From an uncultured SAR86 cluster bacterium (GTDB lineage Bacteria; Pseudomonadota; Gammaproteobacteria; Magnimaribacterales; D2472), in contig CACOLO010000001.1 in NCBI GenBank assembly GCA_902628085.1, positions 153,403 through 217,402 on the forward strand: a stretch of 64,000 bases of DNA. Direction: 5' to 3'. Shown piece after piece: positions 11,368-12,980 of this stretch; positions within the stretch are counted from its first letter, which is position 1; the number at the start of each line of letters is the position of its first letter. The translations under genes were made by a program, and so were the position numbers. The notes beneath the pieces were generated by a model. That model was not told the origin of the DNA. It saw nothing but the letters and a program-made list of their open reading frames with translations, and did no database searches.

Positions 11368-11455
11368 TGGCGGAGGAGATAGGATTCGAACCTACGGTGC
11401 GTTTCCGCACACGAGCTTTCCAAGCCCGCACCTTAAACCACTCAGACACTCCTCC
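11368..11455 (-). tRNA. tRNA-Ser (anticodon GGA)
   Basis: Hand-folded cloverleaf: acceptor GGAGGAG/CTCCTCC, discriminator G plus encoded CCA, anticodon loop TTGGAAA, long variable arm GTGCG-GAAA-CGCAC, T-loop GGTTCGAATCC. Confidence 0.9.
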
Positions 11456-11551: not shown

Positions 11552-11857
11552 ATGTATTATTTAATAGTGCCTTCCAAATATACTAAAGATTTAACAAATA
11601 TTCTTGAGATGTTATGGAACATCGAAAAGGATTTAAATTTAGCCTCCTATAACGAAACAGAAAAAAAGGTCTATCATGTAATTGCTTGGCATTTATCTAC
11701 TTACGGAAACTGTAATATTACCGATGTTATTCAAAATTCAGGTTTTTCAAGATCAACAGTATATAAAACTATAAAAAAATTTGAACAAGCGAATTTAGTT
11801 TATATTCAGCAGTCACAAGGAGACAAAAGAGAGTTTAATTTAATTCTTGCAAATTAA
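11552..11857 (+). CDS. Small winged-helix (MarR-like) DNA-binding protein, orphan
   Basis: ITDVIQNSGFSRSTVYKTIKKFEQANLVYIQ looks like an HTH followed by a wing. 101 aa; no family recognised beyond the fold. Confidence 0.5.
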   Translation: MYYLIVPSKYTKDLTNILEMLWNIEKDLNLASYNETEKKVYHVIAWHLSTYGNCNITDVIQNSGFSRSTVYKTIKKFEQANLVYIQQSQGDKREFNLILAN

Positions 11858-11871
11858 TATCCCTAATTCTA

Positions 11872-12468
11872 ATGAAACATTTTATAAAAGTGTCAATAAC
11901 AGTATATGTATTTTCAATGTTTGTCTGGTCAATATGGTCATATTTACAAGTTGTAGATTTATTTAATTTAAATCCAGAGCGCGAGTGGCTGGGAAGTATA
12001 TGCTATCTTCCTCATGGCTCAAGAGTTTTAATGGTATGTTTCTTTGGATATTACGCAATACCAGCGTTATATTTGGCTGAAATTACTGGACCTGCTCTTA
12101 TCGATCCTCTCGGTTATGTAGATGGATGGAACTATGGTGCAGTTGGATCATTGATTGCTGTGGCAATCGCAGTAGAGCTGGTGAAATGGTCAAGAATTGC
12201 ACCTGGTAAATTTTCATTATTTAAACCAGTAAGCTTTAAAAATTATAAGTATCTTTTTTTAGTTATTGTAATCTCTGCTCTTTTAAATGGTGTTTTAGCT
12301 AATCTAATAGTGTCTATAGTTAATAGTTCAGTTATTGTCGATGTGAGTACTGTGTTTAGATTCACTATTGGCGATATTATAGGAGCATGTACTCTAGTTG
12401 CCGCCTTATGGATAATTTTTACAACACTTGTAGATACAAGGCTTATAGTATCACCTGAAGAAGAATAA
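11872..12468 (+). CDS. Hypothetical integral membrane protein
   Basis: 198 aa with about 5-6 hydrophobic helices, 14 nt after the wHTH gene. No recognisable family. Confidence 0.5.
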   Translation: MKHFIKVSITVYVFSMFVWSIWSYLQVVDLFNLNPEREWLGSICYLPHGSRVLMVCFFGYYAIPALYLAEITGPALIDPLGYVDGWNYGAVGSLIAVAIAVELVKWSRIAPGKFSLFKPVSFKNYKYLFLVIVISALLNGVLANLIVSIVNSSVIVDVSTVFRFTIGDIIGACTLVAALWIIFTTLVDTRLIVSPEEE

Positions 12469-12470
12469 AC

Positions 12471-12499
12471 TTTACTACTGTATAAATATACAGTATAAT
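12471..12499 (+). promoter_or_regulatory. Sigma70-like promoter with embedded LexA (SOS) box
   Basis: -35 TTTACT (12471-12476), 17-nt spacer, -10 TATAAT (12494-12499). TACTGTATAAATATACAGTA (12476-12495) matches the gammaproteobacterial LexA consensus TACTG(TA)5CAGTA at 19 of 20 positions. Confidence 0.7.
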
Positions 12500-12505
12500 T
12501 TGTTT

Positions 12506-12718
12506 ATGAATAAAATAGTTCACATTAACGATCCAGTATTAATTGAATATAATTCTTCTGTTGATAAAGAATCTGCAAAAAAAATGATTGCTTTCAAATA
12601 TTTTAGTAATGACATATGTCTTTTAGACAAATATTTAAAAGATAGAGACGCAATTGATAACAGCTCAATTGCTCATATAGCATTTGAACCTAAGTCGCAG
12701 CTAGAATTTTCATTTTAA
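12506..12718 (+). CDS. Hypothetical 70-aa protein downstream of the SOS box
   Basis: The open frame is listed from TTG 12500. The first ATG (12506) lies 7 nt after the -10 element, so the mRNA would be leaderless or nearly so. No Shine-Dalgarno and no recognisable family. Confidence 0.45.
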   Translation: MNKIVHINDPVLIEYNSSVDKESAKKMIAFKYFSNDICLLDKYLKDRDAIDNSSIAHIAFEPKSQLEFSF

Positions 12719-12767
12719 TATCATAAAAATAACTTTATTTACATAATTGAGTGTATATAATTAAGTT

Positions 12768-12970
12768 TGGTGTCTTGTTTAGTAATTTTTTAAGGGGATT
12801 GCTAGACATTTTATTACTACCCTGAACATGGAGGTGGTCCTATTAGTATTTATAAAACAACAGGAAACGGAGGATTTACCTTTTGACAGGGGTATGCTTT
12901 TGATTTCCGGCTAACAACTTGTTAGTAACAATAGTTAGTTAACCCCCAATTTAAATTGGGGGTTTTTTTT
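12768..12970 (+). ncRNA. Candidate structured RNA (sRNA or riboswitch-like leader), class unknown
   Basis: 262-nt non-coding gap with an extended -10-like TGTATATAAT at about 12752-12761. G-rich islands (GGGGATTGC, GGAGGTGGTCC, ACGGAGGA, CAGGGGTA) stand out from the AT-rich background. Local hairpins and a terminal intrinsic terminator are present. Confidence 0.4.
12943..12970 (+). terminator. Rho-independent terminator
   Basis: CCCCCAAT-TTAA-ATTGGGGG stem-loop followed by T8. Confidence 0.8.
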
Positions 12971-12980
12971 AATTTAAATT

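Follow-up and report, generated by a model that had tools for sequence, protein, structure and literature searches.

A conserved 70-aa gene behind a LexA operator in SAR86 bacteria and its clamp-binding-like C-terminal tail

Few bacterial groups are as abundant in the sunlit ocean as SAR86. Here we describe a 70-amino-acid (aa) gene located immediately behind a LexA (SOS) operator in the genome of an uncultured SAR86 bacterium. The operator recurs in front of recA and umuD of the same genome, operator and gene are conserved together across nine genera, and the encoded protein is modular, with an N-terminal domain and a C-terminal motif under purifying selection on either side of a variable linker. 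The gene is almost certainly controlled by LexA, and we consider it probable that it encodes a LexA-repressed, probably leaderless, small SOS effector that binds the beta sliding clamp. The window, that is the whole stretch of DNA analysed (64,000 nucleotides (nt); G000:C1:153403-217402), belongs to an assembly of 1.22 Mb and 32% G+C that consists of 17 contigs and is 83%-complete.

For comparison we used a family sample of 139 SAR86 genomes from 10 genera (g1-g10), 26 of the 139 being high-quality. Locus-level analysis covered 49 homologous loci from nine genera and 4 more from a second family (f4) of the order Magnimaribacterales; an in-frame ATG was the only start codon searched for in the homologous reading frames. 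Thirty-one diverse members of the protein family were aligned (alignment A1), and non-synonymous and synonymous differences per site (pN/pS) were obtained from 13 same-length members within the genus. The features that make up the locus are as follows.

12471..12476, plus strand: -35-like hexamer TTTACT, its last base being the first base of the LexA box (promoter scan)
12476..12495, no strand assigned: LexA (SOS) operator TACTGTATAAATATACAGTA, 1 mismatch to TACTG(TA)5CAGTA
12494..12499, plus strand: -10 hexamer TATAAT, overlapping the last two operator bases (promoter scan)
12506..12718, plus strand: 70-aa gene including the stop codon, ATG at 12506, stop at 12716-12718 (tblastn, pN/pS)
12506..12643, plus strand: conserved N-terminal domain, residues 1-46 (A1, AlphaFold2, pN/pS)
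12644..12685, plus strand: variable low-complexity linker, residues 47-60 (A1, pN/pS, predicted local distance difference test (pLDDT))
12686..12715, plus strand: C-terminal motif EPKSQLEFSF, residues 61-70 (pN/pS, pattern match)
12698..12715, plus strand: putative beta-clamp-binding hexapeptide Q65-F70, of the type Q-L-x-[LF]-x-[FL] (pattern match)

LexA operator, promoter and SOS regulon

An initial, sequence-only reading of this DNA had described a LexA box with a single deviation from the gammaproteobacterial consensus, lodged in the 17-nt spacer of a promoter. Both observations hold. TACTGTATAAATATACAGTA (12476-12495) departs from TACTG(TA)5CAGTA at one position, and the promoter scan returned TTTACT-17 nt-TATAAT with 10 of 12 promoter matches, the operator filling the spacer and overlapping both hexamers. 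No other site in the window comes within two mismatches (<=2) of the consensus, and 100 shuffles produced 0 matches. The looser pattern CTGT-N8-ACAG is likewise unique in the window, as had been claimed by eye, which alone is not significant (0.5 expected by chance). In relatives the -35 position reads TTGTAT or TTGACT, and the -10 region is kept as CAGTATAAT or CAGTATATT in g1, g3, g4, g6, g8 and g9.

Elsewhere in the genome the identical 20-mer is found only twice more, before recA (contig C4), where it lies 39 nt upstream of the recA start (RecA matches its Pfam model at E=1.7e-142), and before umuD (C10), where it lies between the umuD-like gene and a divergent gene. The box of lexA (C13) is TACTGAATATATATACAGTA, a one-mismatch copy positioned 12 nt upstream of the ATG; the LexA encoded there contains an S24 domain (E=8e-30) and its N-terminus reads LexA-like. 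Since recA and umuD share this very 20-mer and lexA has a copy that deviates at one position, TACTGTATAAATATACAGTA is more than a chance resemblance, and it is almost certainly a real LexA operator. The interpretation of the promoter as LexA-repressed, which the sequence-only reading had tied to use of the motif at the organism's own lexA and recA and to retention of the box in relatives, is supported on both counts, and control of the 70-aa gene by LexA can be regarded as nearly certain. Binding of LexA at 12476-12495 and induction by DNA damage are what we infer from this arrangement.

A screen of the complete assembly (<=1 core mismatch, <=5 in total) recovered five sites in 1.22 Mb, of which four are good and the fifth has 4 consensus mismatches. 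With the strict pattern CTGTAT-N4-ATACAG, 1-4 boxes per genome were found in 136 of the 139 family genomes, the control pattern giving ~0. The SOS regulon of SAR86 thus seems to be minimal, comprising lexA, recA, umuDC and the 70-aa gene. The genome encodes UmuC as its sole Y-family polymerase, and no SulA (PF03846) was found in 41 SAR86 genomes. The umuD box (C10:13654-13673) is common to the divergent gene, which encodes a 428-aa protein with the classical C5-cytosine methyltransferase motifs ELFAGVGG, GGFPCQDYS, ENV, QRR and GNA. Read on the plus strand, this box likewise ends in CAGTATAAT, and therefore the Dcm-type methylase may be SOS-controlled too.

The ATG at 12506 starts 6 nt after the -10 hexamer, and the intervening TTGTTT contains no Shine-Dalgarno (SD) sequence, in agreement with the initial description of the start codon as lying just past the -10 element. 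The layout is shared by g1, g3, g4, g6, g8 and g9, in which the box occupies the spacer of TTG(t/a)(a/c)T...TATAAT or TATATT and the ATG follows 6-9 nt past the -10; it is predicted to give a leaderless mRNA. The distance from an exact TATAAT to the first ATG was counted for the 1105 open reading frames (ORFs) of at least 120 aa in this genome. There were 16, 8 and 8 cases at 6, 7 and 8 nt, respectively, whereas other distances had 2-3 each. Because TATAAT contains a TAA that can fall in frame, the counts at gaps 2, 5, 8 and 11 may be inflated, but this does not account for the peaks at 6 and 7. SD-like words form a separate, normal peak upstream of the ATGs of the same ORFs. These counts suggest that leaderless mRNAs are frequent in this SAR86 genome, with ~30 genes having the layout, and the enrichment of TATAAT-N6-8-ATG implies that leaderless translation is perhaps common in SAR86. 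For the 70-aa gene in this genus a leaderless start is likely. Short public contigs encoding the protein were inspected for transcript-like ends and showed none, being ordinary contigs with flanking genes.

Conservation and architecture of the 70-aa protein

Searches with tblastn recovered the ORF from 99 of the 139 family genomes, 9 of the 10 genera and 23 of the 26 high-quality genomes. Gene loss was considered and set aside, as in those genomes apparently without the ORF that were checked the neighbouring gene for an EamA transporter is also unmatched, which makes these absences uninformative. Judged from this distribution, the 70-aa gene is a near-core gene of SAR86. It is single-copy and occupies a syntenic chromosomal position across the order. 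The description of the ORF as an orphan therefore stands only with respect to its name: among 103 homologous proteins in a large protein collection a functional name is attached to 0 and a Pfam domain to 0, and yet the gene is widely conserved. The closest match with a name is SAR86A, at 93% protein identity; almost all the others belong to SAR86-cluster genomes or to metagenome-assembled genomes of marine Gammaproteobacteria, and one is on a contig labelled Flavobacteriales. A profile search of 1.84 billion representatives yielded 60 clusters (50% identity), and the 34 that were read all look like members or fragments of the same family. No distant relatives of the protein were detected among these 34 of 60 clusters, and therefore there is no function to borrow from them.

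The box has been retained along with the gene. A perfect CTGT-N8-ACAG stands upstream in 48 of the 49 loci of the nine genera. Box and ATG are most often separated by 10 nt (26 loci) or 11-13 nt (16 loci); shorter gaps of 2 nt and 6 nt occur in 4 loci and 1 locus, respectively. An order-wide profile search added weak homologues (E ~1e-4) in the second family, where 4 of 4 loci carry TACTGTATACTTATACAGTA, its last A being the A of the ATG. Persistence of box and ORF in relatives, proposed earlier as a check on the whole interpretation, is thus found in nine genera and beyond the family. Because the two occur together in three different genomic contexts, they represent a conserved unit. One locus of g9 (L030, genome G126) is unusual in that the first in-frame ATG lies 31 nt past the box, giving a product without the usual N-terminus. 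Since the frame is open upstream (..IVFNNFNKT..), translation may begin at a non-ATG codon there, or the start codon may have mutated.

Codon-level selection, the other check that had been proposed, likewise favours a genuine gene. Residues 1-46 are under strong purifying selection (pN/pS 0.185/0.716), as are the last ten residues (0.062/0.833), with pN well below pS in both; the linker (47-62) is near neutral (0.468/0.597). On these values it is nearly certain that the ORF is coding.

In A1 the N-terminal block reads M-NN-I--LN--DPI--E----VDK-S-KKTIAFKYFN-D---L--YL, with D9, D20, K21, K26, A29, F30, K31, F33, Y43 and L44 near-invariant, whereas the linker differs between genera in length and composition. 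AlphaFold2 (run with A1) gave three helices at residues 10-17, 21-32 and 37-54, the core (residues 11-40) scoring 87-90 in pLDDT, the tail 71 and the linker ~54; the N-terminal domain is accordingly predicted to be a three-helix bundle. Profile searches and structure prediction, as had been recommended for this sequence, led to no known family or fold. Searches of the 31 members against Pfam, PHROGs and NCBIfam returned scattered chance matches only, each in 1-2 members, with no Pfam match at E<0.02. The best E value of a profile search against the PDB was not below 0.78, and Foldseek comparison of the AlphaFold2 model with the PDB and BFVD gave nothing below E=1.8. The SulA, DinI and YebG models do not match the 70-aa protein, in line with the initial statement that the product is unlike the known small SOS proteins. 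A loose likeness to YebG seen by eye was rejected, since a search of the genome with the PF07130 model, extended to E values of 10, came back empty. In the paper library searched, neither SAR86 with LexA nor small SOS proteins with clamp-binding motifs led to a description of the family.

The conserved, clamp-binding-like tail, which the sequence-only reading had passed over, is the most informative feature of the protein. A1 has a conserved C-terminus with an invariant Q, and the pattern Qxx[LMFI][FLI] or QxxLxF is present in the last 13 residues of 51 of 53 genome-derived members. The tails observed are listed below.

g1: QLEFSF, QLEFTF, QLELPFN
g3: QLELL
g4: QLELFS
g5: QLELFY, QPELLH
g6: QLAMF
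g7: QPELI
g9: QMEFSF, QLEFSF, QLELFS
g10: QPELFSENRCS
second family: QKDLF, QKSLF

In E. coli, the polymerases Pol II (QLGLF) and Pol IV (QLVLGL) have their clamp motif at the extreme C-terminus, and Hda has QLSLPL at its N-terminus. The SAR86 hexapeptide starts with the Q, is hydrophobic at positions 4 and 6, is terminal and follows a low-confidence linker; among orthologues it is kept while its flanks vary, as the pN/pS values of tail and linker given above attest. The tails drift in sequence and nevertheless keep the pattern across two families, which is what a clamp motif predicts. Of the 2249 ORFs with 60 aa or more in this genome, 2 end in the strict motif, the 70-aa gene included. UmuC of the same genome has QYSLF at the expected place, and a Hda-like protein begins MIKPKQLTFPW, the hexapeptide QLTFPW being of a type close to QLEFSF. 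The Hda-like ORF (G000:C1:73548-73871) is the only, and weak, match to the Bac_DnaA family in the assembly, which is 83%-complete and yielded no DnaA proper. The published consensus for clamp binding is QL(S/D)LF, often C-terminal and tolerant of variation (PMC9690074). Taken together, these observations argue that the tail probably binds the beta sliding clamp DnaN.

Proposed mechanism and alternative explanations

The course of events that we envisage is the following. In the undamaged cell a LexA dimer on the 20-bp operator would block RNA polymerase, because the operator occupies the spacer and overlaps both hexamers; since recA and umuD have operators of the same sequence, repression would probably be tight. 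Upon DNA damage, for which ultraviolet light is the obvious natural agent in surface water, RecA would become active, LexA would cleave itself and the promoter would fire. The transcript would start on the A of the start codon (12506), or no more than 1-3 nt away from it, and would be translated as a leaderless mRNA. The QLEFSF tail would then insert into the hydrophobic cleft of DnaN in competition with Pol III, Hda, UmuC and other clients, while the N-terminal domain would either merely add bulk or recruit a partner. In this way the protein could slow replication after damage, or it could serve as an adaptor linking the partner of the N-terminal domain to the clamp. The absence of SulA and the presence of a single Y-family polymerase, UmuC, make a role in a replication checkpoint or in polymerase traffic attractive. 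It is conceivable, although we put it forward tentatively and at somewhat less than even odds, that the protein is a leaderless 'clamp plug' of 50-85 residues, a checkpoint effector that in a four-operon SOS response docks on the clamp by its QLxLF-type tail and stalls or remodels the replisome until repair, in place of a division inhibitor of the SulA kind.

Several observations weigh against a clamp-binding, leaderless effector. Clamp-binding motifs are short and degenerate, and a pattern match is not proof; the non-polar C-terminus might alternatively function as a protease degron. In three genera motif position 2 is occupied by proline (QPEL[FLI]), which is atypical. Within the second family, two species (L115 and L116; f4, g13) end in ..QQQNVEQKN and have no tail, and one genome contains a pseudogene of the ORF with 5 stops. 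The N-terminal domain has no detectable relative in Pfam, PHROGs, NCBIfam, the PDB or BFVD that would indicate a second partner, if any. The promoter of g5, g7 and g10 is a near-consensus TTGACA-17-TTAAAT whose -10 precedes the box, and the box itself covers the transcription start region; a short SD-less leader is predicted there, and the leaderless start would not be family-wide. Regarding the tailless species, L115 and L116 retain the LexA box and the N-terminal domain, and their relatives L113 and L114 have QK[DS]LF, so that the two may represent a natural loss of the putative clamp motif.

The most serious alternative, in our view unlikely, is that this is a genuine SOS gene whose target is not the clamp: a division inhibitor replacing SulA, or a modulator of RecA, LexA or UmuD'2C, with a tail that docks elsewhere or serves as a degron. 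The absence of SulA from the 41 genomes leaves the division-checkpoint role vacant, and the small SOS-induced proteins of other bacteria (YneA, SidA, SosA, DinI) act mostly on division or RecA. Moreover, the N-terminal domain is as well conserved as the tail and must bind something, and it is this domain, together with the box, that the two tailless species retain. However, the SulA-independent division inhibitors known to us are membrane-anchored, whereas the 70-aa protein looks soluble (the AlphaFold2 model has three helices and a poorly ordered tail), and similarity to the SulA, DinI and YebG models is lacking. The invariant Q and the hydrophobic residues at +3 and +4/+5 have been kept during drift from QLEFSF to QKDLF, behaviour that is clamp-like rather than degron-like.

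Downstream of the gene lie a spacer and a structured RNA.

12719..12757, plus strand: spacer without terminator; the promoter of the RNA gene, TGTATATAAT, starts here, at ~12752-12761 (terminator/promoter scan)
12758..12972, plus strand: conserved unclassified structured RNA, ending in a terminator at 12941-12964 plus T-run (folding, covariation)

The initial remark that no terminator follows the ORF is borne out: from the stop codon (12716-12718) up to a strong hairpin at 12941-12964 none was found. An SOS transcript would thus run into the RNA and end at the RNA terminator (~12972), the first it meets. The RNA gene is ~210 nt long and has an invariant promoter of its own, TGTATATAAT, as well as a strong terminator; the structure has a z-score of -3.1 and its P1 hairpin shows many compensatory changes. 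Near-invariant cores are UAAGGGGA, UACCCU, GGAGGUGRUCYUAUUAGUAUUUAU, AGGAAACGGAGG and GCCUUUUGACA. Rfam searches at gathering and permissive thresholds assigned no family, returning only terminator-driven sub-threshold matches. Several GGA-type motifs make the RNA a candidate CsrA/RsmA-sponge small RNA. It is followed by the EamA transporter gene, and both lie downstream of the ORF in g1, g3, g4, g5, g8 and g9; the RNA also adjoins the ORF in f4, whereas it is not next to it in g6, g10 and most of g7. There the ORF is followed by an overlapping alanine-dehydrogenase-like gene (g7, g10) or by a convergent gene (g6). In g10 (L038-L040) and g7 (L045-L046) the stop codon of the ORF overlaps the GTG of the alanine-dehydrogenase-like gene (TAGTG; product ..LIGVPKEIKNQEYRVGLTP..), which suggests co-transcription of ald from the LexA-controlled promoter in these two genera.

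It could be supposed that the LexA promoter serves mainly the RNA and EamA (here) or alanine dehydrogenase (in other genera), with the ORF as a leader peptide or passenger. The missing terminator between ORF and RNA, the adjacency of ORF, RNA and EamA in seven genera and the second family, and the TAGTG overlap in g7 and g10 would agree with this. We nevertheless regard it as very improbable, given that the protein sequence is under strong purifying selection in two separate modules, that box and ORF stay together in three different downstream contexts, that the RNA has its own highly conserved promoter and strong terminator, and that the g5 transporter lies ~100 nt further beyond the terminator with a promoter-like site of its own. 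The related idea that the RNA is an EamA riboswitch which renders the ORF irrelevant was set aside because the RNA promoter is conserved and, in g5, a promoter-like region follows the terminator.

Least probable of all is a mobile-element remnant, such as a domesticated phage antirepressor or accessory gene: although phage modules of this sort typically have a small unknown gene with a LexA box on its promoter (Tum of coliphage 186 and gp7 of GIL01 are LexA-controlled small genes of temperate phages) and a tRNA gene (11371-11455) lies ~1 kb from the locus, the protein has no PHROG match and no BFVD fold match, the gene is single-copy and syntenic across the order, and the flanking genes are not those of a phage, the window neighbours being QueF, a MarR-like regulator, a membrane protein and the EamA transporter. 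Two of these neighbours, a MarR/TrmB-like regulator of 101 aa and a membrane protein of 198 aa without family, lie just upstream (11552-12468). Their conservation accompanies that of the SOS gene in g1, g9 and g4, and in g3 they are present at a greater distance; upstream of the gene they were not found in g5, g7, g8 and g10, and g6 gave a weak distant match to the membrane protein only.

Relation to known systems and significance

A new protein family is thus placed in a known kind of circuit. The SOS genes of E. coli (recA, sulA, umuDC, dinI, yebG) have the same CTGT-N8-ACAG operator type overlapping the core promoter. The SAR86 product, however, falls into no known SOS protein family, its mRNA is predicted to be leaderless, and the regulon, with about four operons, is far smaller. 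Leaderless mRNAs are known from lambda cI and Tn1721 tetR in E. coli and from many genes in Actinobacteria and Deinococcus; in the SAR86 gene the AUG similarly lies at a normal start distance from the -10 and has no SD, the start itself being a prediction. To our knowledge leaderless genes are rare in Gammaproteobacteria, in contrast to the ~30 genes that share the layout in this 1.2-Mb SAR86 genome.

The proposed slowing or remodelling of replication resembles the UmuD2C DNA-damage checkpoint. The 70-aa protein has no catalytic domain, however, and is homologous neither to UmuD nor to any polymerase. With the E. coli clamp clients Pol II, Pol IV/DinB and Pol V/UmuC it shares its presumed damage induction and a QL(S/D)LF-type peptide, often C-terminal (PMC9690074), binding being predicted in the SAR86 case. 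Small inhibitors that target the clamp have precedents in the SocB toxin of the Caulobacter SocAB system, which has a clamp-binding motif (PMC9690074), and in a pneumococcal clamp-targeting toxin/antitoxin system (PMC12795458). Like SocB, the SAR86 product is a small protein that, as proposed here, would block replication via the clamp cleft. It differs from SocB in that no adjacent antitoxin or adaptor gene is present and no sequence relation was detected, and in that its control would be exerted by LexA, whereas that of SocB is exerted by proteolysis.

Detailed work on SOS regulons has centred on cultured model bacteria. In the paper that describes the first isolate of SAR86, neither SOS nor LexA is mentioned (PMC11582366). 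A cultured isolate, HIMB1674, exists (PMC11582366), and this makes hypotheses on the 70-aa gene testable.

A streamlined and extremely abundant marine lineage apparently keeps four LexA targets, one of which encodes an unnamed family. If its tail binds the clamp, the protein would represent a new coupling of DNA damage to replication, through a small dedicated competitor or adaptor, by a route that differs from polymerases or a division inhibitor. It would then also provide a simple natural peptide ligand of the clamp cleft. Were the protein the clamp plug tentatively outlined above, it would found a class of small SOS effectors dedicated to the replication clamp. Common leaderless translation in SAR86, if true, would be unusual for Gammaproteobacteria.

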